33,400 bases of DNA from Folioceros fuciformis. Its lineage: Eukaryota. Made by a program: the position numbers and the translations under genes. Where the stretch lies: the NCBI GenBank assembly GCA_049999805.1, contig JBNGIO010006088.1:103539-136938 (forward strand), in the 5' to 3' direction. This document shows positions 1,884 to 31,488 of this stretch, in pieces (position 1 is the stretch's first letter; every line of letters starts with the position of its first letter). The notes under the pieces are model-generated. The model was not told where the DNA came from. It worked only from the letters and a program-made list of their open reading frames with translations, and ran no database searches.

Positions 1884-2187
1884 CACTCTGGCGATGTCAT
1901 TAGAGGTTCTCATAATTAGATGGCACTCTAGATCCTTCCTGGTGCCCATCACTAAGAAAATGGAAATTCCAGAAATTCCTTCACTTCCCATGAGCAATGA
2001 AATGGTAGAAAGACGAACTCGGCAACTTGTGCAGGATAGACAATGTTTTGCATCAAGCACGACTTCATGATGAAGACTCATCAATCTCAAAATTGGAGCA
2101 AATTCTAATCTGCACAAATGACTATAGTCAGCCCGGTACATTACCCACTCAGTAAAATTGCCTGTAGTTTTTAGTTAGAAGCACATT

Positions 2188-5100
2188 ATGGCAAGCATAC
2201 CCCAGCCAGATAGTATTCGTCTCATGTTCAAAGCTTTTAACGGCAACAACTACTCAAGATGGAAAACCAAGATGCAACTTCTTCTACGAAAAGAAAAAGT
2301 ATGGACCATTATGGAGGGGACAGAACTCGTACCGGTATGGGGACTAGGGACTCCTGGTGGTATGCAGCCACCTGCTCTCCCTCTAACTGGGCCATGTAGT
2401 GTTGCAGACTGGGAAGAGCGTGACTTAAATGCTCTCACCCTGATGTCCTTCTATGTGGAAGATTCACACAGTCAGTACTTGGATGAGTGCACCACATCAC
2501 ATGCTGCTTGGCTAGCTCTATGTCAATTATGTGAGACTCAAGACTCATCTACTAGGGTGAACCTACGTCGTCATTTCTACCAAATCCAAATGCAGGAAAA
2601 TGAAGCAATTTCAGCATTTCTTTTGAGATTCAAAGAGTCCCTATCACAATTAGCAGCATCAGGAGTTAAAATAGATGAGGATGACAGAGTAGAAAAGTTG
2701 TTGTCGAGTATGCCAGAAAGCTATAATATAGCTGTCATGAATATCAGAGCGAGACCTACCCTGACTGTAGAGGAGGTGGGAGGTCTCTTATTAAGAAAAG
2801 AGTATTGACGCGTAGGAAAGTCAAGTGCCCCTAGTGGTAGTTCCTCATCTACAGCTTTGTATGCCAGCCGTACACCCTTTCCTAGGAACAAGCCCTTCCC
2901 TAGACCATCCTATGGTCATGCTGGAACATCCAGCAAGCCCCCGACTAAATCAATAACCTCAACAAGAAAGGTAAATGCAACTATTGTAAATTACCTGGTC
3001 ACTATGCTCGAGAGTGCAGGAAGAAAAAGTCAGATGAAGCCTCCAAGTCCCGCATTGGAGTGCATTCAGCCATAGCCTTCATGGCTAGTGAGACTCCTAG
3101 TCTCTCCCAACCTGATGTGTGGATCCTAGATTCAGGAGCTACCAAACCCATGACACCCAACCACTCATGGTTTCGGTCGTATGAGCCCCTCTCTACAGGT
3201 GAAAAAGTCTACCTTGGTGATGACACCCCAGTCCCCATTGTGGGGAGAGGTACAATTCCTATCGCTTTCCATGATGGATCCGAGAGGCTTATTATAGATG
3301 TCCTGCATGTTCCCGGGTTGAAGCGAAATTTACTCTCCGTAGGTCGTATCACAAATGCTGGTTACAATTTACAGTTGCATAGAACTAACTTCACCATACA
3401 AGATCCACGAGGTGATTTGGCTCTTACAGGTGAGAAACAAGGTGACTTCTATGTGCTTAGCGGTGCTCCAGGCGGTTCTTCCCCTTCGAACTTGGGCTTC
3501 ACCCCTGCAACATTAAAAGTCATAGTCAGTAATCCCCTCACCTCTCTTGACTTGTGGCACCAAAGGTTAGGCCATGTGAGTTCTAGCAAACTGCAAGACA
3601 TGCTTGGAAAGCAGGCACTTATTGGAATCACTATCAATTCTCGTGATGCTCCTAGTTTTTGTGAAGGCTGCGTGCATGGCAAGCATCAACGCTGCCCGTT
3701 TCCCAAAACTAGAGCACATAGGGCCACCAAGGTGTTAGAGCTCATACATAGTGATCTTTGCGGTCCTTTCCAAACTCAATCTATAGGTGGCAAGACCTAG
3801 CTTCTCACCTTCATTGATGACTACACTAGGCATGTTACTGTCTATTTTCTACACCACAAGAGTGATGTCCTGGATGCTCTTAAGTCCTATTGCACCCACG
3901 TAGAAACACAACATGGGCAAAAGATTCACCTCCTTTGCATTGACAATGGCACAGAGTATTGCAATCATGCATTCCAGGACTATTGCTCAAGGTCATATTC
4001 AGAGACAACTTACCGTATCGTATACACCTGAGCAAAATGGGGTCACTGAACGCCTCAATCGCACGCTTGTGGAGGCCGCTCATACAATGCTTAAGGTAGC
4101 CGGCCTTCCCAATACCCTTTGGGCGGAGGCCATCTCCACAGCAGCCTACTTGCACAATCGTGTACTAACCAGTGCTGTCCCCAACATCACTCCAGAGGAG
4201 GCTTGGACGGGTAAGCCTTCTATCTCTCATCTACGAACCTTTGGTTGCTACGCCTACTCACACAATCCCAAGGATTTGCACCACAAACTCAATTCCAAGG
4301 CCCTCACCTGTGTGTTGGTAGGCTACAGTATAGAATCGAAGGCCTATCGCCTCTATGATCTTGCAGCCCGTAAGATCATTGTGGCGAGAGATGTGGTCTT
4401 CGATGAATCTCCTTCCTATGGCAGCCCAGTGCCAGTGGCAGCTCTTCCCTCTCGCACCATAAGCCCTCCATACCCTGGTGCTGGTGATCTTTTGGAATAT
4501 CCTCTACTGGAGGAGGCCTACGGTGCTGCCGACACATGTGATTCCTGCGGCTGTCCCTGCCCCTGAAGTGCCCCCTCCTGGCTTGCCAACGCCGGTGGTG
4601 CAAACCCCAGGCTCGCTACCTACGCTCCTTCCTACTCCAACTACCCTCCTGGAGGTACCCCTATTTCTCCCTCCTTTCCTGCCTCCTCCTCAGATATTGA
4701 GGACTATGGTGGGGCTTGGCCTCTCTCCCCTACTAGTGCCGCGCCTACGGTGCTTCCTTCTGGATTCTGGTTCCGCCCCGAGCGCCTTGTTCCTAGGTCG
4801 CCTCGTCTTGTGCCTCCCCAATCTGGTGGGGACGTGGTGGAAAGATTGTTCGCGTGACAAGCAAAATCATCCCAATCTTGGCTACACTCCAAGGCAAGTA
4901 GAAAGTTAAAACCTAAACGTGACCCCGACTTTTCATACCTTTCTTATTTAGCAAATTATGAAGAAACTCCTCTGAAAGCATCGAAGGCTCGTGAGCCTAT
5001 GACCATGAGAGAGGCATTGTTTGGCCCCACGTCAAAACAGTGGGAGCAAGCCATACAGTTAATGTATGATTCCCTCATACAGAATTGTACTTGGGAATTA

Positions 5101-6570
5101 GTTGATCTCCCACCACGTAGAAATCCCATCACCTGCAAATAGGTGTTCAAGCATACACTTGATTCATCTGGACAGATTAGTTGCTATAAGGCTAGACTTG
5201 TAGCCAAGGGCTATATCCAGGTTCAAGGCTTAGGTTATGAGGACACTTTCTCACCAGTAATGCGGCTGGCAATTGTGTGTGTCCTGCTGTCCTTAGCTAC
5301 CATGCTAGATATGGAAGTCTACCAGCTAGATGTAAAAACTGCATTTTTGCATGGTCATCTAGAGGAAGAAATCTACATCATGTAGCCCGAAGGTTACACT
5401 TCACCAGATACTGCTAACAAAGTGTGTAGGTTAAAGAAATCCATCTACGGCTTGAAGCAAGCCCCAAGGTCCTGGAATACCAGGATCAATGAGTACTTGC
5501 TCAGACACGGGTTTAACAAAAGCTCTGCAGATTCCTCCTTGTACATCAAGCATGAGAATGGTGAATTCATAGCTCTAGGTCTTTGGGTTGATGACACCAT
5601 CCTAGTCACTAAGGATCTTGATTTGCTAGCTCGTACCAAGGGCACTCCTTCAAGCAGAATTTGACATGACAGATGTTGGAGCTATTGAGTTTTTCCTAGG
5701 CATACAGGTTCTTCGTAATCGAGCTAGCAGAACTATGTTTCTAACTCAAAAGCAGTACATTCATTCTGTGTTAGAGAGATTTAACATGTCGAATTGCAAT
5801 GGTGTGAGCACACCATTGGAGGCCAACAAGAAGCTGACGAAGGCAGACTGTCCCCAGGCCGACGAAAAAAAATCGGCTGTGTCTGGTTTCCTTACCAACC
5901 AGTCGTAGGTTCAGTCATGTATGCTAGGGTGTGTACTTGTGCTGATCTTTCCTTTACATCTGGCACATTGTCTTAGTTCTCCTCTAACCCAGGGGACAAT
6001 CACTGCCAGTCAGCCAAGCGGACGCTACGATACATGAAGGAAACTGCTGATCACGGACTAAAGTATGGAGGTTTGTCATCTTTGGATGGTCTCACTCTCA
6101 CTGGCTTTTGTGATTCTGATTATGGCAGTGACCAAGACTCTAGAAAGTCCACCACGAGCTACGTACTCATGCTTGGTGGTAGAGCTGTTGCTTGGTCAAG
6201 CAAAAGGCAAGCCACTGTTGCTCAATCGAGCACGGAGGCTGAGTATATTGCACCAGTAGAAATGGCCAAGGAGTGCATTTATATGTGAAGACTTCTTGCA
6301 GATTTACAAAAGCCTCAACCTGGTCCGACTGCGATCTATTGTGACAATCAAGCGTGCATAGCCCTATCGAAAGACCCAAGATACCACGGGCGAACGAAGC
6401 ACATACAAATCCGATACCACTTTATCCGAGAGATGGTGGCAGCAGGAGAAATTACTCTCGCTTTTTGTCGCTCTGAGCAAAACTTGGCAAATGTTTTGAC
6501 GAAGTCTCTACCCAAGGAGCAGCATAAGAGATGCAGTACAGGATTAGGCGTGACCAAGCCAGCTGTCTAG
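2188..6570 (+). pseudogene. copia gag-pol polyprotein, disrupted by multiple stops and frameshifts
   Basis: Gag FNGNNYSRWKTKM; Zn knuckle CNYCKLPGHYAREC (about 2975-3017); protease WILDSGAT; LWHQRLGH...CEGC; integrase LIHSDLCGP and [59 protein letters not shown]; RNase H GFCDSDY and SSTEAEY. Confidence 0.93.
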
Positions 6571-6865: not shown

Positions 6866-6965
6866 NNNNNNNNNNNNNNNNNNNNNNNNNNNNNNNNNNN
6901 NNNNNNNNNNNNNNNNNNNNNNNNNNNNNNNNNNNNNNNNNNNNNNNNNNNNNNNNNNNNNNNNN
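6866..6965. other. Assembly gap (100 N, true length unknown)
   Basis: Run of 100 N. Confidence 1.
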
Positions 6966-10070: not shown

Positions 10071-11700
10071 AACCCGGGGGGCTGTGAGGCAGTGGCCTTA
10101 AGGGTTAGAGCGGTCTTGGACCTGCATCCATATTGGGTTGCCTTGCAGGTCAATGTGGAGAATGCCTTCAACATTGTCCTTAGGGTGGCTATTTTCAATG
10201 AGCTGAAGGTTGCTGGAGGTCGTATGGAGTCTCCTATCCCCTTAGACCGCTTTGTCTATGGTGCTCCATCTAATCTCTACTTTTAACAGGGGCCCACGGC
10301 GAAGGAGGTCTCAATGCTCAACTCGGCAATAGGTAGGCGCCAGGGGGATCCCCTAGGAGGGGCTCTTTTTGATATGGCTCACTTCGGAGCCCTTTTAATT
10401 ACCGCTTCGAAAGTAGGGGGTTGTCTCTTCCCATCTTTGGCCAATAACACTTATCTCGTAGGTTCAGGGGATAAGGTTAAGGAAGCCTTTGAGCTTTTCT
10501 CAAAGGAGCTCTTACGCTGGGGCCTAAAAGTCAAGATTTCCAAGTGTGAGATTTGGTCTTCATATGGTATCACTCCATCTCTACAATTTCCGAAGGGGAA
10601 CATCGATTCTCCATTAGGGATCCACGTTCTGGGGGTCCCTGTTGGCCCCCCGATTTTATTTGTGAATTTGTGAATGCAGCTTTGTTGAAGAATTTGGCAC
10701 ACATTGAGGACCTTTATCAACTTGGGGACCCATAGGTGTCCTACGTCACCCTCTCCGCCTACTTTGCGTGATGCCTCGAGTACCTTATCCGCACGGTGTG
10801 TCTATCCCCAAATTTTCTTTTCAAAGTGAGGCACTTTGACACAAGTATTGAAGAAATTAACGGTCATTGTTAGCCCGAGTTCATTCGATTGTATTGCTGG
10901 TGATTAGGCTAGGAGACAAGCATCACTACCCATTGCTTTGGGCGGCATTGGGCTATTGGCCATAGAGGCCTTGGTGCTAGCTACTTTTTTTAATAGTTGG
11001 GCGTTCTCTGTCCCAGCTTTAGTGACTCGCTTCTCCATCAGAAACTCGGGTGTTTCGTAGGCTTTTGTCACAGGAGTTGAGGAGGGGCCATATCCCCTCC
11101 AAGGGTCCATTAGGAGGGCCTGAGATCTCTTATCCTTACACGCTTGATTGGTCATGCCTTCTTTTTCCTCTTTCCTTTGTGGGGGTATAAGGGGGCTTCA
11201 GGCCACCCTCATGGAGAAGCTTTATGGGCAAGAGTTACAGGCCCTCACGCTAGATTCCTTCATTGACAAGCAGGCTCGGGTACGCCTTCGATCTTGTTCG
11301 GGGAAAGGCGCTAGCTCTTGGCTGTTGGCCATTCCATGCATCTCGGCTTTCCGAATCATAGCAGCTTCTTTCTTTACTGCGATAAGGTTTCGCCTTGGCT
11401 TGGTCCAGCCCTTGGCCTAGTCTCTCTCTCGTTGTAGCTGTGGGGTCCTGCTCGACAACCTCGGGAGCCAACTAACGCGTTGCCCTATTAGTGGAGACTA
11501 CATCGCATCACACCCATAATGCAGTGAGGGACGTTATGTTTCCTTTGGCCAAGGAGAGTGGCTTCTTCTCCTATAAGGAGAGCTCACATATCTTGTTAAA
11601 CGGCGTCTCCATCATTGGAAACCTTTTCTTGACCAAGGTGGACCAGGTTTCTATAGTGGATGTGGTAGTCCTCTTTTTGCCTTTGGCCCTAATGGGGTTG
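10071..11700 (+). mobile_element. Degenerate 5'-truncated CRE-like non-LTR retrotransposon (RT to RLE)
   Basis: PGGCEAV, LQVNVENAFN (DxxNAFN), GRRQGDPLGGALF, PSLANNTY (decayed ADD motif), GIHVLGVPVG, QASLPIALGGIGL, RLRSCSGKGASSWL, CSCG, HNAVRDV, DVVV. Same family as 1-1301. Confidence 0.8.
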
Positions 11701-17840: not shown

Positions 17841-18088
17841 CAGTGTTCTCTGGATTTGGCATCGTAGCAGTAGCAACAGCACGCTCAGATTCTCTACCTC
17901 TCTTGTTGGCTTGGCAGTCTCCCGGTATGGGCCGCCTGCTGCTGCTGCCCCCGCTCCCGCTCTTGTTGTCTGCGATCAGGTGTGCTGTGTGAGTGTGTGC
18001 AAAAGTGCTGGCCGCCGTGGCTCCGGCATGGGAATTGATTGCGCTTTCCGCTGCATTCGTTGTGTTGCGGCGGCTGAATTGGCCGTCA

Positions 18089-18114
<26 letters not shown>
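18089..18114. repeat. (TG)13 microsatellite in predicted leader intron 17980-18130
   Basis: Direct reading; donor CAG|GTGTG at 17980, acceptor GTGCAG at 18130. Confidence 0.9.
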
Positions 18115-18122
<8 letters not shown>

Positions 18123-18151
18123 CGGTGCAGGGGACGGGATCCCGGGCCGGG

Positions 18152-21100
18152 ATGACGCTCTGGGAACAGCAGGACCATCCTCCGGCGTATGCAACGGGGT
18201 GGAAGAGTGACGGCGATGGGGATGTTAGCATTGGGGAGTCGGACGTGGACGGACGGGACCCGTGGTTGATGGACGCTGGGGAGGACGGGGCCATGTCGTC
18301 GTCCGAGCTGCAGGATGTAGGCAAGGAGGAGCGCAGGCGTAGGTTGAGCACTCTTGTCAAGAAGCGCCGGAAAGACGGTGGGGAGGACGGCGGGGTGCGG
18401 GATGGAACGAATCGCCCTAGGCTGCCGCCGGCTCCTTCCGTAAGAAATTCGCGGGAGGATGGCGCGCGCCTGTGGGGTGCCTCCGGGAGGCGTTTGCACT
18501 CGTCCAGCAGTTATAAGAAGGTGATGCCGGAGAACCAGCGTGGGTCGGATTCGCCGGCGGGGAGCGGCTCGGAGCCTGCGCGCATTGTGCATGGAGCGCA
18601 GGCTGGGTCCAGTAAGGAAGGTGAGGCAGTGCACATTTTTCGAGAGCCTTGTCGTCTTGCAAATGCTTTGTCCGTGACGTGAGCAGCTGGTTCTGGATGT
18701 CAGTGCTTTTGTGTTGGTGCGTGGATGCAGGAGGGCTACAGAGGAGGGGCCTGGCTATCAGGTCCATTCCACCCCCGGTGAGGAATTTGTCGCTGTCAGA
18801 GGAAGCTGCGGACCTCGAGAATCCTGGGCTGGAGAGGGTGAATCGAGCGAGTGTCAACGGGCAGATCAGTGGCTCCTGGAGGTCGGGGTGCAAGGTGCCC
18901 GGGGCACTGGGGCCTGTGAAGAGAAAGAGGTCTCCTGTTATCCGGGGTGGCACCGATTACGACTCTCTGCACAGCAGAGGGCAGAAGCGGAGAAGAGGGC
19001 AGAAGCGGAGAGGAGGGTGGGGGGTATCTATATCGGATCAGGTGTCAGACGGCTTGGGCGGTGACTTGGACAGCCCCAAGGATGGACCATCTCCTTCGCA
19101 CAGTCCTCAAGGAAGGAGACGTGCGCTGGAAGAGTCCCCTACACCCGTCGGCTCCAGCATGACGCCAACCGCTGGTAGAGCAGGCAGGAGGAGATGGCTC
19201 TCGTCTTCCAGAAGGGAGGATGCCTCACCGAAAGACACGGAAGATGAGGATTCCAGGCTATTTGGTAGGGCAGGGGCCAAGGAGCTCCACAAAGACCTCA
19301 GTGTTGAGAGATGCTCGTCGTCGTCTTGGACAAGTCGGCACGTCCTCGCAGAGGATCTGGGGGAATGTTCGGTGGGTAACGGAGGATCAGCTCGGGGTAG
19401 GCATGTCGGTGATGAGACGGAGGAACATGCAGCTGAGGCTGAGGGTATGTCTCAGGGTAATACGAGGGCTCGGCATTTGCCCAACCACGCTCACCCGAGG
19501 GTGAGAAAGACCAAAGACATGCAGTCTGTTATTCAAGGAAGTGATTCGGTCACAACAGGAGATGCAAACGCGGGGTTCGCTCCCAGAATATTCCGTCCTG
19601 TTGACCATACATCCAGGATGCTGCAGGGTAAGCAGGATGGGAGCATTACCTCCAAAGAGGAGGATGGCAAGTTATCAAGTGGTGCAGTTGTCTGGGCCAA
19701 GGTACCCGTTGCCGCTTGCTAGTGTCCGGCTTACGCTCAGTGGTACAGTGTCCCACTGCAACTTGATTCGTGTGTTTTTCTGCAGATAACGGAGGAGTTG
19801 TGGTGGCCAGGAATTCTGATATCTCGCGCGTGCCTCCCACCGGATGTCCCACACGACCTCCTTGAGAGCAAAGGAGAAGGTTCAAAACCAAAAATTGTTA
19901 AGTTCTTTGGGTTCAAGCGAGCATCAGATCATTATGAAGCCGTACGGAGGAGGTACGGCCTTTTCACCTGGGACCCTCAGAGGGAGGGTGTGTCCCAAGT
20001 ATGAACTTGCTTTCTGCACTCTGTCGTCATAGCATCGCGTTTTCGTTTTGGATTTCTTATGAAAGGTTTGTTTTGGATTGGTCTGTGCTTCCAGCTGCTT
20101 GTGCCTTTTTGCCAATGGTTATGAACGCTTCAAGGATGGAGATGGAAGCAAGGGGCACAGGGAGGCTGTTTCTCTTGCCAGTATGTACCATCAGAAGACA
20201 TCGTCTTTTGGCACAGTTCAGAAAGAAGTTCGTGACCAGTTGGATACAAGAAAGCTGCTTCTGGCTGATCCTCATCAGGACTCTCTTAAGAAGAATGCTA
20301 CACGCATGAAGGGATCATCACAGAGCACAGATCCTGCGTTGATGAGTTCCCCCCGCCATTTGGCTAACGTGTTAGCTGTCCAGACTCCGGAGGAGCAAGC
20401 TCTGGTAGCAGGGCTTCCTCCAAGTTCGATAGCTGGCATCGGCACAAGCTTATCTGGATCTCTTGCAGGCCTGCCCCAGCAGATTAGCGTGCCTGGGTCT
20501 GAAGGTGGATCGGATGGAGGGGGCCCATCCTTGTCTCCTTTAACCATGGTGCCGCACCAGGGAATGAGCCATAACCTGGACATTGAAAGAAGGATGGAAG
20601 CTGGAGTCCCAGGATCCCCTGATGACATGTCATTTGATCATCAAATTCCTTCAATACAAATCGGTGGAAAGAAGAGAACGCATTCTCAGATAGAAGGCTC
20701 ACTGATCTCAGGTGAAGGATTGCGACGTGGAAACAAGAACACAGTCTTAGCGGAGACTGTAGCTAGCAGTGCCCTCACAGTTTCCGGCCTACCTGTTTCG
20801 TCAGGGAGGGAGATCCCTCCGGCTCAGGAAGGACTGCTTGTTGAAGGAGCAGCAAGGCCAGGCCCCTTGGATGTGTGCAAAGACACACGGATCATGCAAG
20901 CCCCAGAAGGTGCAATGCCTGCCGTCATAGAGCCTGTGAAAGCTACTGGATTGTGCACTGATCCAGATGCAGTGAAGACCGTAGGAACCAGTTCAAGTTC
21001 TGGCCGGGATGTTGGGGAGAGAGAGGATTTCTGCTCTGTGGATGAGCACAATGATATCTGTGAGAAATGCGGGCTGCGTGGTGATCTCCTGTATGTCGAA

Positions 21101-24100
21101 ACTCTATTGCATTGTTCTCTCCTCGTGTAAACTTCGCCAAGCATATATGCTTTCCTATGTAATGAAGTGTGATTGCTAGTGTCAGCTCATGGTTTTGGTA
21201 ATGTCACGTGCTTTTTGCAGATGTTGTGGCTGCAAGGGCTGCAAAACAGCATACCACTTGGGTTGTGCTGTATCTCAGGTGGCTGAGAGACCTGTAGGTA
21301 ATTGGTACTGTCCTGAATGTCAGAAGAGGAGGCTGCTAGCGCACATATTTGATGGTGTTGAAGTGGAGTCTATATGGAGGGTCAGAGAGGCTAGGTGCCC
21401 GTCAGCGATTGATCCAAAATCACAAAGTGCACCAGCAGCAGTTCCGGGTGAGCATATTCGGGCTGAACGTGCAGGTAGGAACTGTGGGATGGAATGCGCT
21501 CTTAGTTGTGGATGGTTTGACGATTTTTTATGGTGTGAGAGTTGTTGATCTACTTCTTTATTTGAGATACAGATGGATTGACAAGTGTCAGGGTGTTGGT
21601 TGTGGAGCTATTTTTGTATCTGAGTTCCACATGAATTGACAATTGCTAGTGTGTTGGTGATTGGTCTTCTGCTTTGCTTGAGTTATGATATCGCGAAATG
21701 GGTCGGGGAATATCTGAAAGTTTTCTTTTCCCCCTTCACTCTTTTCTTCATTGCAGTTAATGGTGAGAGGAATGGGTCAAAAGAGATCCTGAGTGGTGCT
21801 GCTGTTGAAGTTCTGGGTTGTGACACGAAGGAGTATTTTGTGAAGTGGAGTGGGTATGCCCATGTCTACAATACCTGGGTTCAAGAAGCTGAGCTCATCA
21901 AACTAGCACCCAAGAAGCTTTCCTCATACAAGAGGAAAGCAGATCAGGGCAAGGTACCATTCCATCACAGCGTTTCTTTCCTGTAAAGGTGTCTGTGACT
22001 GTGTAGCCTCACTAGTCTTGATGTGTAGCTAGCTTCTATTTGATCGCAACATGTGGTGGGAAGTACTTCTGAAGTGTTATGATGACTCCTGGAATAGAGC
22101 CCCAACTGGATTGAAGACTGGGTTGTTCCAGAACGGTTCCTTGCACGCAAGGAGTCACGGGGGTCTGATCACACACACGAGAGAGTCTGTGGTTTGGGTG
22201 GGGGCGGTGGTGGCCAATGGTTGGTGAAATGGAAAGGTCTTGGATACGACAGTTGTACTTGGGAACCAAGTGATTCTAAAGTATTAGCAAATAAAATTGG
22301 AGAGGACCTTATTCTTAAGTTCAACAAGGTAACCCCAGCTGGTGGAAGGCAAGATGGGGCTGGAGGAGCCAATGAGGTATGATATTGTGTTGATTAGTTT
22401 GAAGTTGGATGCGACACATTCCTAGCCTAATGGTGGGTCCTGATCAGGTTGAAAAAGAGCTTGTGCCGATTGAAAGGTTTTTTGTACAGCCAGAATGGGA
22501 TGGGGCACGGTGGCATTACGAGCAAGTGAAGGTGCCAGAGAAACTTATGGCACGCTGGAATTTGAAGTCCAACTGCATACTGTCTCAAGATGCCTGCAAG
22601 GTTTGTAGGTTCTTGATATTGCAGCTTCTGGCTTGTGATGGTAGTGTGTGGAGTTGTGAGGACGATGTCAATTCTGATTATCTGATTTTATGCTTTATTT
22701 TTTGGGATGTTTCAGGAAAGAACAGTTACTGCCCTGACATTTGTTTTATCCCTTCTGCGAGCATGCCCGAATGCCAAGCCTGTTCTGATTGTCTTGCCAT
22801 CCAAGGCCGTTGCTGCATGGGAGAACGAACTATTGCAGATTGCGCCTGAAGTGTATGCAGTAACCTACACAGGAACCCAGTTAGCTAGAGATGTTATTCA
22901 ACGCCACGAGTTCAACTATGACGGTGGAGGTTTTAAAACTCAGATTGTCTTCACAACTTTTGAGATCGCTCATGTGGTACAGAGTTGTTCCTATCATCTA
23001 AACTGTGTTGTCAAATGAAGTTTGTGTTTGTCTGTTTTTTGTAGTGATCCTCATGGTCAATGAGTCAGGTCGTTAGCGATTAAAGTTACATTTCTCTCTA
23101 TCGGCATAATTGTGTGTAGGATTCATATCTAAGGGACATGAGCTGGGAGGCACTGTTGGCAGACGAAGGCTACAGAATGGTGAAAGGTGCAAATGCAGAG
23201 AACTCTTTCCGCCTGCTCCAAACAGGATTTCGGCTTCTTCTTTCCCATGAGCCGCTTAAGGTCCCCCCTCCTATCAAACCTTGCAAACATGTTTTCAACA
23301 TCCTGGGTTTATGACTTGTGCCTGGTTCTAGTCTGATTGTAGGGAGCATGTTGTCTGAAGCTGGCATACTGGAGGCACTATACTCATCATTTAATTTCTC
23401 TTGCGCAGAACGAAATGGAGGATCTGTTGCATATAGTGAGCTTTCTGCAGCATGCAGAGGCAAAACGTAGTTATGAGCGGTGTTCAGGTCGGGATGAGAA
23501 AGAGCAAAAGGATTTCTTGTTGAAATTACTAAGTGAGTTCATTGTGTCTCCATCCGAGGAGTTATGCCAATCAGAGTTTGAGTTGGTGGAGCACTGGGTT
23601 CCAGTTGAAATGAGTATCCAACAGGTGGAGCAGTACTGTGAGATATTGTTGAAGAATTACTCGACACTGCTCAATGACCGAATACTAGGAGAAAAAGTCC
23701 CATCATTTAAAGATCTCGTGACTGAACTTCACCTGGTAGGTGCTTCTATCTGCAAGTGGTTTTACGTGCATCTGATCACCAAAGTGGGATCGTGGATCTT
23801 TATTCATTCGTTCTCGGGTTTGTCTATAGCTGTCTGAAGAATTGGAAAACAGCTGCAGATGAGCATGAAAATTGGTTGCAGGATTCTGACATCGTGGTTC
23901 CATGTAATGTCCATGCACAGTGCTCGGCCCACCCTGCCGCTGCAAATGCATCTAGAGTGGATGGAAAAGATACGGTGGAGGAAACGCTCTTGATGGATAC
24001 CATACAAGCTAGTGGCAAGCTTCAGGTTTTAGACATGATGCTTATGAACCTTAAATCACATCGTCGCAAAGTGGCGATTATGGTTTCATCCAAGGTTGTT

Positions 24101-27100
24101 TGAGGGGCAGTCCTCAGTTCGTAGAATCACTCAGTCTTGTGGATTGTGGCTTTACCTGTATTGTCTTTCGGTTTGATTAACGTCTGAATTCTATGCAGGC
24201 TGTGATGAGAATTTTGGAGGATTATATGCGACTGCGGTTTGGGCCTGACTCCTTCGAGGTGGTTAGCACACCTCTCGCCTGTAATGACAATCGGGCTGAA
24301 GTCCAGCGTTTCAATGAACTCGAATCAGGCTGCTTTGCCGTTCTCCTTCCGGCCTCGATGTACGGCAAGGTCTTACACCTTACAAATGTGGACGTTGTTA
24401 TCATCTTTCAGGCCGGTTTGACCTCTTTTGATGCCGCACCATCATTACAGAGAGCCCTGCAGTCAAAGAAGTTGACAGTATTCAGGCTTTACACACGGTT
24501 GAGTTTGGAGGAGGGGATGCTTGCAGCTTTCAGGGGTAAATTGGTCAGGGAAAGGCTTGTGGCTGCTGCAAAACCAATCAGTGCCAAGCTCTGTCAACAG
24601 ATTTTGAGATGGGGAGCTAAGGAGTTATTCGAAATCTTGAAGGGCAAGCTATCTCTCATTGGAGAGCGCAGAATAGCTTATACTGCAGAAAATGTTCGTT
24701 TGCTTTTGGAAGAAAGTAGAGGAATACTTGTGAAAGATGATATTGAGCATCAGTTGCTAAGGTGTGTCTTGACGAATAGGGCAGTAGAAGGCGAGTCAGC
24801 TATGTATGGTCTGCACGAGGAAGATCCTCTCCCGGAGGATATTGAGTCTTCAAAGAACTTCTGGTCAGGTCTGTTGAAGGATGGATATGTGGAATGGCAA
24901 ACCACTGGGAAGATGCCCAGGGCCAAGAAGTCAGTTCAGTGCAGGGATGACGCAATGGCTTCAATAGGTCATTCTCCAGCCGTCGAGGATGATAGTTATG
25001 CTGAACAAAGTACAAGGAACATGAAAGTTCACCAAGGCCATGTGGTGAATGGCACCTGTGCGAGCCCCGAGGGAAATTCAATGCCACAAAAGGTGCATCC
25101 TGAGGAGATCGAGGAACCGCAGCAGGAGGTGGCTGAGGATTTACAGGTACTGGTCACCCTCTCCCACGCGTGTGAACCGTTTTTTGTTCGTTTGTGGTGA
25201 AATAACCATGTTGGACCCTTTTACGGTTGGGGGCCTTTGTTTTACAGCATGTCGTGTATTATCTTCTTTGCACTGTACCGTGGAACAGTGTGTTAGTGTC
25301 CACTACCTGCGCCTTTTCTTTGAACTATTTGCTTGCTGACTAGCTACTTTGTATGAAGCCCAATCATGGGAACTACTCAGTGTTTTTGGATAAGGGCAGT
25401 CTTGTCGAAGAGTTTTCTTTGATCCTCAGACTAGTTCTGTCAGTCAACGGTAGCAATTATACCTGACCTGGAATTCTGGCTAGACATAATCTCAGCGTTA
25501 TGTTTGATGTGCAGGAGAAAGAGGGACAGCCAGGTCGTCCATCTGTTCAGCCATCTTATATCGCTCTTACTATTCGGGCTGATGAAAAATCCGAAAGTCT
25601 GGATGTGGAACGGCAGGTCGTGTTGACAAGTCAATTGCACAAAGCAGCAGCAGCTGCTAGTCACTCGGGTGCCTATGACACTGTAAAATCTAATCAGATG
25701 CAGCAACCGGAAGTAGCTATTTTGTCACTTGATCAACAACCTCTGCCGGCTGGCGATACCTCGCGCAAGCCTACAACTTGCCAGATGAGTCTGCATCCTG
25801 TAGAGGCCGCTCCAGTGAGAACAGCTGCTGCCAGTCAGTCCGGTGCCAACGACTGTGCGGGTGGGAGTCAGGTGCCACAACCGGAAGCAGCAAATCCGTT
25901 ACTTGGAGCAGATGCCACAACTGGAAACAGTCAAGAACCTGTCACGGTTGGGGATGCCTCCTGCCAGCCTCCTGCGTCCCAGACAAATAAGCATCCTGTA
26001 GAGGCTGCTCCAGTAGCGACTGACTTTCTGGTCGGGGCACGAAGACTCCTCCGCCCACTTGAATGGCTGGCAGGACTGTTCATCGACCCTCCATGCCAAT
26101 TAGATGGAATTCTACTGGTAACGCCTGAGCAGCAGGAAATGGCTGTTACGCAGCTGAAAGATCACCAGGCGAAGGAGGACAAGCATTTCCAGGATTCTGT
26201 TCAAGGCGCGAGGAACAAATTAGACGCCCATTATCAAGAAGCTTTGGAAGCAGTCAACAATCTACCTGATAAGTCTCAGAGAGAAACTTACAAGAAGATC
26301 CTGATGCAGGGGTATGACTGTGAACTCTCCCAGTTCACAAAATGTGAGCGGGAGGAGAGGCGCAGACTATTTGCAAGACAGGAAGCTGCCCGTAACGACC
26401 TCAGGTCTAAGATAAGGCCTCCTGCAGTGCTGCCTCCGTCTCCAACACAAGCCGAGATAAGGCCTCCCGCAGTGCTGCCTCCGTCTCCAACACAATCCGA
26501 GATAAGGCCTCCGGCAGTGCTGCCTCCGTCTCCAATACAAGACGCAGAGACCGGTCTACAGTCTGGTCTTCTCTCAGGTTTGAATTCTGGGAGTGCTCTG
26601 AGTCGTAGCCCCTCACTCTCTCAAGATGTACTAGTTGGAGTGAGTGTTACCTCAGTGGCTGAGCTTCGGCAACAGCAGAACACATCGCAGCCACAGCCTA
26701 GAACAAATGTCCAGGCTCAGATTCGAAGACTAGATCAGGCAGAGGTGCAACCCCTTCTTCACGATGCACAGACACGTGGGCCTCAGTTTGAGGTTCAGGG
26801 TCAGTTACTCGACCAGGTGCTACATGTACAAGGGAACACTCCAGGTCAGTTTGTGGCTTCTACCCAGCAGATGCAGGCTGAAGCTCGTTTCCACCAGGCA
26901 TCGACTTCTCAAGTCCACGCTCAGACTGTGCACTCACCGACTCAACACCAGGCTCAGCAGGACCAGCGGGCGCGCCAGGTGCAAGTTTGTGAGGATTTGC
27001 AGTCTAGACTTCTGCAACCAGGACAGCACCAGCAATTCCAGAGTCTGACGCTAAATACTAGTCATCGGACGGAGGGTCTTTGGCAGGCACAACTCCAGGT

Positions 27101-30100
27101 TCAGGCTGAACGTCAGCAGGTGTACCACCAGCAGGCTGATGCTCATCCACTTCATGCCTTCCTGCAGTCCCAACCTTGTGTGCAGACCCAGCAACATCAG
27201 GTCTTGTCGCAGGTGCAGCAAATGACTGAAGCCCAGCAGTTGGCTCAGACCCAACAAAGGCAATTGCAAGCTAGTATGCACCCCAATCATATGGTCTATG
27301 TGCAGCAACCGCAGAGTCTGGCCCAACAACTTCAATCGCAGGCCCCCATGCAATCTCAGCTACACGTTTGGACCGATCACTCTAATTCTGAAGGCCACAC
27401 CCAGGGGCAACATTCACAGACTCGTGTTTCAGGTCAGATCCAATATGCATCCACCCAACCAGCGTTACCGGGGCAGCAGGCTCTGCAAGTAGTTGAACAA
27501 CAAGTCCAACAGCAGACGCAGCAGGGGCACCACCGGCGGCAGCAGGGTCAGCAGCAAAGGCAACAGCATCAGCTTGGTCTACAGGGGCAGCAGCAGCGAC
27601 ACCAGCCACAGCAGGGGCAACAGCAACAGCATCAGCTTGACCAACAGGGGCAGCAGCAGCGACACCAGCCACAGCAGGGGCAACAGCTTGGGCAGCAGGG
27701 ACAACAGCGTGGTCTGCAGTCGGGGCAACAACAGCGTGGGGAGCAGCAGGGGCAGCGACAGCGTGGTGAGCAGCAGGGTCAGCAACAGCGTGGTGAGCAG
27801 CAGGGTCAGCAACAGTTTGGGCAGCAGCAGGGGTCTCTACAGCTTGGCCAACAGCAGGGGCAGCAACAGCGTGGTCAGCCTGGGTCACAACAGTTCCAAC
27901 AGCCACATCCGCAAACTCAGCATGCTTCACAGCAGTCACTCCAGGAACTGTCCCATGCGCATGCATTGGCGCAGGCCCAGCAAGAGTTTCAGCATCTTCG
28001 GCAGAACGGATGGACAGGACAACGATCTACGCCACCGGCTCATTCTGACGTTCAGAGGCAACCAGCCCCAGTCCAGCAGTCTCTGTTGCCACATCTTCAA
28101 GGCCTGCATCGATCCATTTTCAGTTCAGCACGGCAGGCAGAACCGACTCTTCCAGGCCTTCCTCTCCTGGCAACACCCCAACTAGCGAACAGCCAGGCCT
28201 CATCTGCGCAGATAAGTCCTGGAGCATCTTCACCTCACCAAGGGAGATCAGGGGTGCATTCTATGAGTTTTGTTGCAGGACTACTTCGTGGGCAAAACTC
28301 CGGTACAAGCAGCCCTGCACTCACTCTGCGTGGAGCAGCAAGCCCAGGTCATGGCCAGAGCCCGAGGAACAGCTGGGTGAGCCATGTGCAATCATCCGGC
28401 GCAGGGATACAAAACGGCAACACTGGTGTATCTTCTTCGGGTAGGAGTGTCGGAGGCGCTATGCACACTCCTGCAGTCTCTGTGATGGCCGGTGCAGCAA
28501 CTAATGCAACTCAAGGTCCACGGCTGCCACAGCTTCAGAGCTCCCCGATGGCGTTGCGATCCGCTCCGGAGCTGCCTCGTGCTGCCCCATTGGGAACGAT
28601 CACAAGCCTTACGCAGCCCGTGTTGTACGGAGTTGGTGGTGGGGGTCAGTCTGCAAGCAACTCGGCGGTACGTAGAGACACCTCAGGAGCCCCTCAAGTC
28701 ACCGCTATGGCAACAAGCAGGCGTGTGGTCCCGCCGCTGGCTGTTCCAGCCCTAAACACGAGCACCAGACCTGCAGTCGCTCCCGGGGCTGCTCCTTCAA
28801 TTATGTTGCCTATGCTGCGCCAAGCTACTGCGACAAGTGCATCTACCATAGCTCAAGTCATGCGAACCACACCGGACCCTCTTGTCATTGAGGAAGACAG
28901 GCTGAAGAAGAAGATGGTTGATGAAGAGGTTGACGGAACTGTACAGGTAAGTACTTGAAGCCCTTGTGCTCTGCTAATAATTTCTACCAACTTGGTTTGG
29001 ACGTCCAGAACTGAAAACGTCTTTATGGACATGTCTTTGGAGTCGTGCAGGAAGCTGCACTTCGGCAGTCTTACCTAAGAGAGGCGTCTCTTTTGAAGAA
29101 CAAATATGAAAAGTTGATACAAGATCACAATGCGAAATCGAACGGAAAGATTGACAAAATGAAGGACGCCATGGCCAAGGTAGATATGAATAGAGAGCTC
29201 GCTCATATGCTGCGAGGGAAGATGCCCATGGAGCAGCAGTCAGCACAGAGAAGGGCAGGTGCGTCCTTGGATGCTTCCATTATTGAATTTCATGTGCAGC
29301 GTTTTAGGTGAGTCTTGATGACACTTGTTTTGGTGTAGCGCAATTAGCAGAGATGCGAGCTTGTGGGCAATCTCAGAATGGGTCACCTACCGATCGGCAA
29401 TTTGGCTTTCCACATTCGCATCTGAGATCCTGCCCCGCAGCCATAGTCCTTGCGCCAGAGGATGGAAGGATTTCCTACGGTATCACTACGCAGCACTTCC
29501 CATTGTTGTTATTTTGCTTTCAGCTGATTTTCTTAGAGAGTGGTATAGATGACACATTCGTGTCTTCATTGTCGGCAGGTGCTGGATCCGTCATGACATC
29601 AACCCTTGCGCCGGCCATCGGAACAAACATGGCTTCCCCTACCCTCGCAGGGGTGTCAGGAGTCCCCAGCTCTAGGCCTGCCCTACCTCTGAATGTGACC
29701 CAGGTACCCCCCTCTGAACCTTGCGTTGCAGAAAATAGTGACAAGATTCTTAGTTGGCGAAGTCTGAGGCCGGCAGTATTGTCATCGTAGGCCAATCCAC
29801 TGCAACACGGCAGACTTCTACGATCACAGGGCTCTCCCACGTCGCAGCCAGTGCAATCTGTGCTGCGGTTGAGGGCTCAGAACTTGCCTCTACGAGTAGG
29901 TCAGCCACAGGAGAGTGTGCCACCGTTCTCTGGGCAGAATCTGCAATTTTTGGGTAATTGCGCTTCGAGAAGCGTTGTTTCTGGAGCTCGGATGGTGGCA
30001 CCATCTGGGGTAGCGTCTGTGCCACCCCAAGTTGCGCATCTCAGTCAAGCTTCTGGAAGTTGGAGGACACTGACTGCCTTGGGGCCCGCAACTCGTAGTG

Positions 30101-30414
30101 GAAGTATGTCTACAGGACTTCCAAGTCAGTCAGCAGGCGTAGGCGTCGGGACAAGAAGCCCTTCTGCACAGTCTATTTTAGCTTCCCCAAATTCTGCCCT
30201 TGCAGCAACTACTGAGGTACTGCTCGGCCGTTCTAACAAAACTGCATATGCCAACATTCCAGCCAGGTTCCTTGGGGAAGGTGAACATTTGGTTGTGCAG
30301 TCATCCAGAGGCCCAAGCGCTCCTTCGTCTGGGGGGCCGGCCCCTACCGCAGCAGGTGGGAATCCTGCTGTCAGCAGCACTCCTGAGGTGATCGACTTAA
30401 CTGGTGACGACTGA
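18152..30414 (+). CDS. MOM1: MOM1-like (CHD3-derived) transcriptional silencing factor, about 3232 aa: PWWP-PHD-chromo-chromo-degenerate SNF2 ATPase-coiled coil-Q-rich-CMM2-SIM
   Basis: Manually built GT-AG model, all phases consistent, no internal stops: 18152-18620, 18731-19701, 19786-19952, 20095-21090, 21221-21447, 21757-21953, 22098-22376, 22448-22600, 22716-22976, 23120-23260, 23409-23735, 23921-24094, 24199-25146, 25515-28946, 29051-29258, 29579-29703, 29791-30414 (9699 nt). MOM1-type signatures: CC.xKGC PHD followed by VESIW, EHWVPVEMS.QQVEQYC, LEDYMRLRFGPDSFE, CMM2 (DPL.IE..RL...KY...KVDMN..LA) and terminal VIDLTGDD. The start codon and some splice sites are uncertain. Confidence 0.88.
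19681..20134 (+). other. PWWP domain (exons 2-4 of the MOM1-like gene)
   Basis: Spliced peptide GAVVWAK|ITEELWWPGILIS...KIVKFFGFKRASDHYEAVRRS|CLCLFANGYERFK matches the PWWP consensus G..VWAK....WWP...V.FFG...Y..V...L..F. Confidence 0.82.
21041..21320 (+). other. PHD finger (exons 4-5)
   Basis: DEHNDICEKCGLRGDLL|CCGCKGCKTAYHLGC...GNWYCPEC, C4HC3 pattern. Confidence 0.92.
21364..22326 (+). other. Tandem chromodomains (exons 5-7)
   Basis: VESIW...KEYFVKWSGYAHVYNTWVQE and WVVPERFLARK...QWLVKWKGLGYDSCTWE, typical of CHD3/PKL double chromodomains. Confidence 0.92.
22484..24530 (+). other. Degenerate SNF2 ATPase, both lobes (exons 8-13)
   Basis: QPEW, PVLIVLP...WENEL...YTG...R.VI..HEF, WEALLADEGY, ASGKLQVLD, RFN, VDVVIIF, VFRLYT..SLEE are collinear with CHD3, but catalytic motifs are altered. 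Confidence 0.88.
26411..26540 (+). repeat. Coding 45-bp tandem repeat x3 (IRPPAVLPPSPTQxE)
   Basis: Units start at 26411, 26456 and 26501. Confidence 0.95.
26670..28000 (+). other. Gln-rich low-complexity coding region with GQQQ(R/L/F)G repeats
   Basis: Translation of exon 14; densest at 27495-27905 (QQGQQQRGEQQGQQQ...). Confidence 0.9.
28875..29212 (+). other. CMM2 (Conserved MOM1 Motif 2) coiled coil (exons 14-15)
   Basis: DPLVIEEDRLKKK...|EAALRQSYLREASLLKNKYEKLIQDHNAKSNGKIDKMKDAMAKVDMNRELAHML, versus the remembered MOM1 pattern DP...E.E.L...K...NK.LA.AF. Confidence 0.82.
30388..30414 (+). other. C-terminal SUMO-interacting motif (CMM3-like)
   Basis: VIDLTGDD-stop: hydrophobic core plus acidic tail, in the position of the MOM1 terminal VVCLSDD motif. 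Confidence 0.8.
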
Positions 30415-30824: not shown

Positions 30825-31041
30825 GGTCACATGTAATGTTACTTAGTGTCCGTGGTAAACAACTTAGTCATTCCAACGTAGGTCACATGTAATGTTACTT
30901 AGTGTCCGTGGTAAACAACTTAGTCATTCCAACGTAGCAATTAGTTGAGGATGTCTTGTAACTTGGTCCCATGTAATGTTACTTAGTGTCAGTGGTAGAT
31001 AACTTAGTCATTCCAACTTAGCAATTAGTTGAGGATGCCTT
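30825..31041. repeat. 56-bp repeat x3 (last two copies at 84-bp period)
   Basis: GGTCACATGTAATGTTACTTAGTGTCCGTGGTAAACAACTTAGTCATTCCAACGTA at 30825 and 30881, variant at 30965; GCAATTAGTTGAGGATG follows copies 2 and 3. Confidence 0.92.
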
Positions 31042-31063
31042 CTTGTTCGTCTGTACCACAAAA

Positions 31064-31488
31064 GACAAGTAGCATCCTAGTCCATGCTCTGTAGGGAATA
31101 TATATCCGGACAAGTAGCATCCTAGTCCATGCTCTGTAGGGAATATATATCCCGACAAGTAGCATCCTAGTCCATGCTCTGTAGGGAATATATATCCAGA
31201 CAAGTAGCATCCTAGTCCATGCTCTGTAGGGAATATATATCCAGACAAGTAGCATCCTAGTCCATGCTCTGTAGGGAATATATATCCGGACAAGTAGCAT
31301 CCTAGTCCATGCTCTGTAGGGAATATATATCCGGACAAGTAGCATCCTAGTCCATGCTCTATAGGGAATATATATCCGGACAAGGACAAGTAGCATCCTA
31401 GTCCATGCATCCTAGTCCATGCTCTGTAGGGAATATATATCCGGTCAAGTAGCATCCTAGTCCATGCTCTGTAGGGAATATATATCCG
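31064..31488. repeat. 45-bp minisatellite, 9 near-identical units
   Basis: GACAAGTAGCATCCTAGTCCATGCTCTGTAGGGAATATATATCCG at 31064, 31109, 31154, 31199, 31244, 31289, 31334, 31385 (with internal duplication) and 31444. Confidence 0.97.

Follow-up and report, generated by a model that had tools for sequence, protein, structure and literature searches.

Gene structure and the divided PWWP domain

We analysed a 33,400-nt stretch of the Folioceros fuciformis genome (assembly GCA_049999805.1, contig JBNGIO010006088.1, positions 103,539 to 136,938 of the forward strand), hereafter called the window, which contains the gene of a MOM1-like protein on the + strand at approximately 18.1–30.4 kb. The gene model has 17 exons, 14 of which were joined in a transcript contig and the last three of which are predicted, and its product has approximately 3,200 amino acids (Table 1). 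Judged by its sequence, a segment in the N-terminal part of the product is a true, though divergent, PWWP domain, which is distributed over three exons and interrupted by two introns. A first-pass annotation of the window had proposed this domain from the letters of the DNA, together with the splice junctions 19701/19786, 19952/20095, and 21090/21221 that would connect it to a PHD finger. All three junctions were present in the transcript contig.

This 7456-nt Logan contig from public run X1 was aligned on window positions 18130–26400 with no mismatches. It contained 13 joints, all 13 bounded by GT..AG, that connected 14 exons, and the exon borders were taken after the joints had been corrected for cut offsets. 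Run X1 was one of three listed public runs, and 0.75 of the sampled words of 19300–21500 were present in it; no contig of runs X2 and X3 was aligned to the window stretch. The transcript support therefore consists of a single contig from one run of one study, the RNA label of which was a guess, and the precise removal of 13 introns indicates that the source was spliced RNA. Because the 13 joints lie on one contig, the PWWP exons, the PHD finger, both chromodomains, the helicase region, and the start of the Q-rich exon belong to one spliced molecule, and the single reading frame claimed for the PWWP exons, PHD finger, chromodomains, and helicase was found in it. The introns around the PWWP exons were 84, 142, and 130 nt long with pyrimidine-rich acceptors ending in CAG, and the donors after 19701, 19952, and 21090 (exon/intron) were AAG/GTACCC, GAG/GTACGG, and CCT/GTATGT, respectively.

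The spliced frame was open from a stop codon near 17990 to 28946 and, with three introns that are frame-consistent and bounded by GT..AG but are prediction only (28947–29050, 29259–29578, and 29704–29790), to the stop codon at 30412–30414. Candidate in-frame ATG codons were located at 18116, 18152, 18269, and 18293. The open frame of approximately 3,200 codons gives a product of approximately 3,193–3,244 amino acids, according to the choice among the first three ATG codons. A (TG)17 microsatellite at 18089–18122 was located at the 5′ end of the contig and overlapped the first of these codons.

Joining 19681–19701, 19786–19952, and 20095 onward reproduced the peptide quoted in the first-pass annotation in frame with the PHD finger, and the spliced translation contained the core motif of the domain (GAVVWAK, ELWWPG, and KIVKFFG). 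We built a subfamily hidden Markov model (HMM) from the four Pfam-validated PWWP domains of CHR4/PKR1-like proteins (P0025 of Riccia sorocarpa, P0028 of Diphasiastrum, P0066 of Taxus, and P0018), and the window sequence was left out of it. The sole match of this HMM in the spliced window protein was found at residues 314–409 (23.2 bits, E = 4e-9). The isolated 110-residue segment scored 31.0 bits, and the best of 2000 shuffles, 1734 of which returned a score, reached 9.4 bits. These results indicate that the segment is the PWWP domain that had been proposed. A phmmer search with the spliced segment against 150 relatives found P0006 (a MOM-like protein of Diphasiastrum), P0028, P0066, P0025, and P0018; the E value of the P0006 domain was 1.5e-4. 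The Pfam PWWP scores of these five proteins were 26.0 (barely over the Pfam cutoff), 45, 57.7, 56.6, and 39.5 bits, respectively. VW.K, xWWP, the acidic-x-P-x-x-L turn, and V.FFG were in register in the alignment of the window segment with the relatives. By the HMM envelope and this alignment, the domain extends from approximately 19672 to approximately 20200. The interval 19681–20134 first assigned to it thus covered a real PWWP segment, but its end was set too early and the last helix was lost.

A profile of the five relatives and the window exon matched the solved PWWP domains of DNMT3B, NSD2, NSD3, HDGF/HRP, PSIP1, and MSH6, among which DNMT3B and the second PWWP domains of NSD2 and NSD3 were nearest. 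An AlphaFold2 model of the P0006 domain had five strands and two helices (pLDDT 80.6, pTM 0.71), and all matches listed by Foldseek for this model were PWWP structures with TM values of 0.6–0.66. The WWP motif and the aromatic residue of V.FFG in these solved domains were conserved in the window protein.

The methyl-lysine cage of PWWP domains is formed by three aromatic residues. The first-pass annotation had read the first cage position of the window protein as Glu, and the alignment confirmed Glu at the residue before LWWP. In the profile alignment this column corresponds to the Phe before SWWP in DNMT3B, which we take to be a cage residue and which is replaced by Glu in the window. Positions 2 (the second W) and 3 (the F of FFG) were aromatic, and the three-aromatic cage is incomplete. 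The lack of an aromatic residue is not peculiar to the window gene, as the same position is occupied by G, G, R, G, and K in the five relatives. Because position 1 is non-aromatic in all of the CHD-associated relatives, the incomplete cage is a trait of the subfamily, and methyl-lysine reading is uncertain. With the first cage aromatic missing across the subfamily, the PWWP domain would be more likely to contact DNA or the nucleosome, or to recognize a non-canonical mark, than to read H3K36me3 in the classic manner. The CHD-associated PWWP subfamily is therefore a candidate for non-canonical chromatin recognition.

Table 1. Exons of the MOM1-like gene (window positions; + strand) and the domains that they encode.
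Feature	Position	Strand	Remarks
Exon 1	18102–18620	+	Acidic then basic low-complexity N-terminus; contig extends ~28 nt upstream of 18130, 5′ limit approximate; joint 18620/18731 GT..AG
Exon 2	18731–19701	+	R/S/G-rich; last 7 codons (19681–19701, GAVVWAK) form PWWP beta-1; no Pfam family in the region 18625–19701
Exon 3	19786–19952	+	PWWP core: ELWWPG (beta-2), acidic-x-P-x-x-L turn, KIVKFFG (beta-3)
Exon 4	20095–21090	+	PWWP tail (beta-4/5, helices) to ~20200; linker of ~285 amino acids without a family; first half of PHD from ~21053; no Pfam family in 20096–21088 and no match with this stretch as homologue query (proteins of 581–2000 amino acids only)
Exon 5	21221–21447	+	Second half of PHD; Pfam PHD 21.3 bits for the half-domain alone; joint 21090/21221 in contig
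Exons 6, 7	21757–21953, 22098–22376	+	Tandem chromodomains; Pfam Chromo 38.1, 35.6 bits; joints in contig
Exons 8–13	22448–22600, 22716–22976, 23120–23260, 23409–23735, 23921–24094, 24199–25146	+	SNF2-like pseudo-ATPase; joints in contig
Exon 14	25515–28946	+	Long disordered region rich in Q/P, with tandem repeats in the coding sequence; first half of CMM2 from ~28842; acceptor 25515 in contig, contig cover to ~27610 implied by length, donor 28946 predicted
Exon 15 (predicted)	29051–29258	+	Second half of CMM2 coiled coil, end ~29221
Exons 16, 17 (predicted)	29579–29703, 29791–30414	+	C-terminal EVIDLTGDD at 30385–30411; stop codon 30412–30414

Relationship to the MOM clade

The assignment of the gene to the MOM1 type was examined at its C-terminal motifs and in its helicase region. 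A CMM2 HMM was iterated from the C-terminal region of the relative P0003, and 96 of the 176 collected relatives were its members. The window match of this HMM (42.7 bits, E = 2.5e-15) spanned the predicted junction, with half of the motif on a predicted exon. One HMM member, cassava MOM1 (P0131), matched the structure of the MOM1 CMM2 (PDB 3VEM) with an E value of 3.4e-12 when the CMM2 part of the protein was used as the query; the full-length protein was dominated by SNF2 matches. A phmmer search of the window CMM2 half-exon against PDB gave four chance-level matches, none of which was MOM1. The predicted C-terminus was EVIDLTGDD, on predicted exons, compared with [DE]VVCLSDD[DE] in most of 45 MOM-clade C-termini (core VIDL versus VVCL). 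According to PMC6084981, the VVCLS-acidic ending of MOM proteins is the SIM of CMM3.

The helicase motifs were degenerate. Motif I was ACKERT, compared with GLGKT in CHR4, and was of the xER type, as is the QER of the Diphasiastrum, Marchantia, and cassava MOM proteins. Motif II was DEGY instead of DEGH, motif III was SHEPLKN instead of TGTPLQN, and motif V was altered. Pfam SNF2-rel_dom matched at 22716–22976 only (28.8 bits), and neither Helicase_C nor DUF1087 of Pfam was found on exon 24199–25146. The hallmarks of active CHR4/PKR1-like remodelers (GxGKT, DE[AG]H, and DUF1087) were thus not found in the window gene. The CMM2 match and the degenerate ATPase motifs agree with the first-pass description of a MOM1-like protein, as may the predicted C-terminal motif, and on these features the gene belongs to the MOM clade within plant CHD subfamily II. 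The order of its predicted domains is a disordered N-terminus, PWWP, a linker, PHD, two chromodomains, degenerate SNF2, a Q/P-rich region, CMM2, and a putative CMM3/SIM-like motif.

In comparison with the known members of the MOM clade (Arabidopsis MOM1, 3VEM, and PF25029), the window protein is alike in its CMM2 and its xER-type motif I, and its predicted acidic C-terminus may be SIM-like as well. It also has the PHD finger and tandem chromodomains that, according to section 7 of PMC9113485, occur in most MOM homologs. In contrast to the clade, it has an N-terminal PWWP domain and lacks a detectable CMM1 (PF25029), and it is very divergent, with a best identity of 35% over 617 columns.

To collect relatives, 1.84 billion representatives were scanned in full by HMMER with exon 24199–25146 of the helicase region as the query; only 290 proteins reached E ≤ 0.001, and the highest identity among them was 44%. 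PWWP domains were found in 10 of the 176 proteins surveyed, and these 10 proteins correspond to five genes. Four of the genes are CHR4-like (P0025, P0028 with six isoforms, P0066, and P0018) and one is MOM-like (P0006). P0018 was sister to a Ceratopteris protein in the tree and is likely to be from a fern, and the carriers thus cover a liverwort, a lycophyte, a likely fern, and a gymnosperm. The PWWP domain preceded the PHD finger in four of the five carriers, no PHD finger was detected in the N-terminally partial P0066, and chromodomains and SNF2 followed in all five. An RVT_2 fragment was also observed ahead of the PWWP domain at residues 25–110 of the partial Taxus model P0066; it is probably a gene-model artefact with transposon sequence. 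The combination of PWWP and CMM1 was found in P0006 only, and the combination of PWWP and CMM2 was found in none of the 176 proteins, and hence in none of the 96 CMM2-bearing relatives. PWWP was not found in the angiosperm CHR4 proteins of Magnolia and Victoria, in which the PHD finger starts at approximately residue 70–80, nor in the MOM proteins of Marchantia, Riccia fluitans, Selaginella (MOMa), and cassava.

The four CHR4/PKR1-like carriers share with the window gene the order PWWP-PHD-chromo-chromo-SNF2 and have homologous PWWP domains. They differ from it in their intact GLGKT and DEGH motifs and SNF2 scores of 254–269 bits, in DUF1087 (4 of 4) and a Myb-like domain (3 of 4), and in the lack of any CMM motif (0 of 4). 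P0006 (KAJ7544078.1, a hypothetical protein of Diphasiastrum complanatum) was the best full-length match of the window protein (398 bits), and its PWWP domain was the closest to that of the window. In this protein, too, PWWP lies upstream of PHD and is followed by chromodomains and a degenerate SNF2 region without GxGKT or DE[AG]H. Unlike the window protein, P0006 has a zf-CW domain ahead of its PWWP domain, a weakly matching DUF1087, and, at the C-terminal end, a remnant of CMM1, and no CMM2 was found in its annotated model, which is possibly truncated.

The zf-CW domain was located upstream of PHD both in P0006 (residues 694–737, directly before PWWP) and in Selaginella MOMa (P0093, residues 167–211). 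A zf-CW domain upstream of the window PWWP was considered and ruled out, as Pfam gave nothing on that region (Table 1). The presence of zf-CW in two lycophyte MOM-like proteins and its absence from the window suggest that early MOM-like proteins carry varied reader modules.

A FastTree phylogeny was calculated for 78 rows after the removal of 26 isoforms and fragments and of 73 matches with an aligned stretch of <550 residues. Two clades were recovered in the tree, one of CHR4-like proteins and one of the MOM proteins of seed plants. The window protein, P0006, Selaginella MOMa, and the liverwort MOM proteins fell between both clades without a stable placement.

Ancestry and possible function of the PWWP domain

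The first-pass annotation had suggested a fusion specific to the lineage, which was not borne out: homologous PWWP domains are located N-terminal to PHD in CHR4/PKR1-like proteins and in the MOM-like P0006. Because these domains share VW.K, xWWP, and the acidic-x-P-x-x-L turn at the same place upstream of PHD, retention fits better than a new fusion. We consider it probable that the window gene is a MOM-clade pseudo-ATPase gene whose divergent, split PWWP domain was inherited from a CHR4/PKR1-like remodeler ancestor. Most likely, the domain is ancestral and was retained in the window gene and in a single MOM-like protein of a lycophyte; on the same comparison, it was most likely lost from angiosperm CHR4 and from the MOM proteins examined in liverworts, Selaginella, and seed plants. 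The tree agrees with the origin of MOM from a PKR1-like progenitor that is reported in section 7 of PMC9113485.

Several observations weigh against this interpretation. All 176 proteins of the survey were retrieved with the helicase exon, and some PWWP absences may be annotation truncations, as in P0030, which has no N-terminus. The window protein was on a long branch (1.26) in a tree made with FastTree only, in which its position among the early-diverging sequences was not settled. Given this branch and placement, the ancestral retention is an argument of parsimony over five PWWP-bearing genes. With respect to the clade assignment, CMM1 (Pfam PF25029) gave no Pfam match on 25515–28946 at E ≤ 1, and an in-house CMM1 HMM of 93 members gave no window match even at E ≤ 1000; a GBE paper of 2022 defines MOM sequences by CMM1. 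The C-terminal motif and the three introns nearest the 3′ end are prediction only. With respect to the domain itself, Pfam PWWP (PF00855) was the only Pfam match on the core exon but remained below the cutoff of 25.6 bits on the unspliced pieces that could be scanned (core exon, 14 bits, E = 0.072; surrounding open reading frame (ORF), 15.1 bits), because the domain is split by introns. A phmmer search of the core exon against PDB sequences gave nothing at E ≤ 10, and the PWWP-named ESM-Atlas clusters at ranks 2 and 3 for this exon (scores 0.81 and 0.80) are at the level of leads. The fold evidence was obtained with the relative P0006 and not with the spliced domain of the window, the exon of which was one alignment row for that fold. 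With respect to function, the N-terminal region and SNF2 sequences of Arabidopsis MOM1 are dispensable for silencing according to PMC2507757, where the loss of PHD and chromodomains from AtMOM1 is likewise read as dispensability. A functional role for the PWWP domain is therefore not implied.

Because the ATP-binding motif is gone, nucleosome remodelling by the window protein is unlikely. The protein may be a chromatin-bound scaffold that does not remodel nucleosomes, and the PWWP-PHD-chromo array may tether this scaffold to nucleosomes in cis. If CMM2 works as it does in Arabidopsis, it would form dimers and bring in partners of the PIAL type. The Arabidopsis CMM2 with a nuclear localization signal (NLS) is enough for silencing, according to PMC2507757 and PMC10338684, and miniMOM1 (CMM2 and NLS) pulls down MOM2 and PIAL1/2, according to the latter. 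A wider reading, which we regard as tentative, is that the PWWP-PHD-double-chromo array is the ancestral targeting module of CHR4/PKR1 and MOM. The dead MOM scaffold of the window would then still be targeted in cis by a PWWP domain that has a non-canonical cage and whose ligand may be DNA, the nucleosome, or an unusual mark, and flowering plants would later have passed the reading to partners such as AIPP3 and PHD1.

We also considered whether the PWWP domain is a decaying relic that is translated but no longer binds chromatin, in a protein that works only via CMM2 as miniMOM1 does. The Glu at the first cage position, the low Pfam score on the core exon, the very long window branch, and the loss of the domain in most of the MOM lineages examined are in line with such decay, as are the dispensable N-terminal and SNF2 regions of the Arabidopsis protein and the lack of PHD and chromodomains in AtMOM1 (PMC2507757). 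However, the frame was unbroken, the splice sites on either side were intact, and the PWWP exons were included in the sole transcript seen. The core fold residues (VW.K, WWP, V.FFG, and the tail with its hydrophobic pattern) were kept, with a score of 31 bits against the relatives. Moreover, the non-aromatic cage position is common to CHR4-like PWWP domains that score 40–58 bits in Pfam, which indicates a subfamily trait and not decay. We therefore regard the relic as unlikely.

An independent capture of the domain in the window lineage, in which exon shuffling added it to a MOM-like gene, would be in line with the introns that bound the domain and with its absence from the 96 CMM2-bearing relatives. 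Word-index searches with the PWWP domains of P0006 and P0066 also gave no further long proteins, although these searches were weak and are uninformative on the distribution of PWWP. In contrast, the best matches of the window domain were the PWWP domains of the sister CHR4-like clade and of the MOM-like P0006, the position upstream of PHD was the same, the acidic-x-P-x-x-L turn and the non-aromatic cage position were shared, and the carriers were spread from a liverwort to a gymnosperm through a lycophyte and a likely fern. A capture is thus very improbable, and retention from the remodeler ancestor accounts better for these similarities. That the segment is not a PWWP domain, or that its exons belong to a separate upstream gene, would suit the sub-threshold Pfam score of the single exon and the lack of a PDB sequence match with that exon, but can be practically discarded in view of the HMM match (E = 4e-9), the clear shuffle control, and the one spliced contig that bridges the segment to PHD, the chromodomains, the helicase, and the large exon.

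No paper that connects PWWP with MOM1, CHR4/PKR1, or PKL was found in the searchable literature, which was judged in part by titles and the starts of abstracts. In the one paper found in which MOM1 and PWWP occur together, PWWP refers to yeast Ioc4, and the papers listed for CHR4 and PWWP deal with chromosome 4 or with animals. PWWP does not occur in the main text of the CHD survey of 2022 (PMC9113485), and its S4B, S9, and table S1 could show one. The architecture is already visible in public uncharacterised entries, as the precomputed Pfam list of P0006 includes PF00855. The window gene encodes a protein of the MOM clade in which PWWP, PHD, and chromodomains are retained beside CMM2, whereas Arabidopsis MOM1 has lost its own reader domains. 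It adds PWWP, a domain unmentioned in the searchable CHD/MOM literature, and, taken with the CHR4-like carriers of PWWP among non-flowering plants, it offers a testable picture of an ancestral, cis-targeted state. The value of the locus is evolutionary and annotational, and no new mechanism is proposed.

Repeats within and around the gene

Upstream of the gene, the body of a Ty1/copia-type long terminal repeat (LTR) retrotransposon was located at 2179–6570 on the + strand, with Pfam matches to copia gag, Pol beta-barrel, pre-integrase, retroviral SH3-like, and RVT_2 in several frames, and was followed by a gap of 100 N at 6866–6965. Three ORFs on the + strand (159–1301, 10287–10673, and 11148–11420) matched no Pfam family and shared peptide stretches such as ...RSCSGKG.SWLLA..., which suggests that they are copies of one repeated element.

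Coding tandem repeats were observed in exon 14. A 45-nt unit was repeated 2.9 times at 26410–26541 and encodes a proline-rich unit of 15 amino acids, and CAG/CAA-rich units of 21–81 nt at 27510–27895 encode a Q-rich tract. Downstream of the stop codon, non-coding tandem arrays occupied 30825–31487. They consisted of 56/84-nt units at 30825–31041 and of a 45/135-nt array at 31063–31487, which contained approximately 7 and 3 copies with 91–98% matches.

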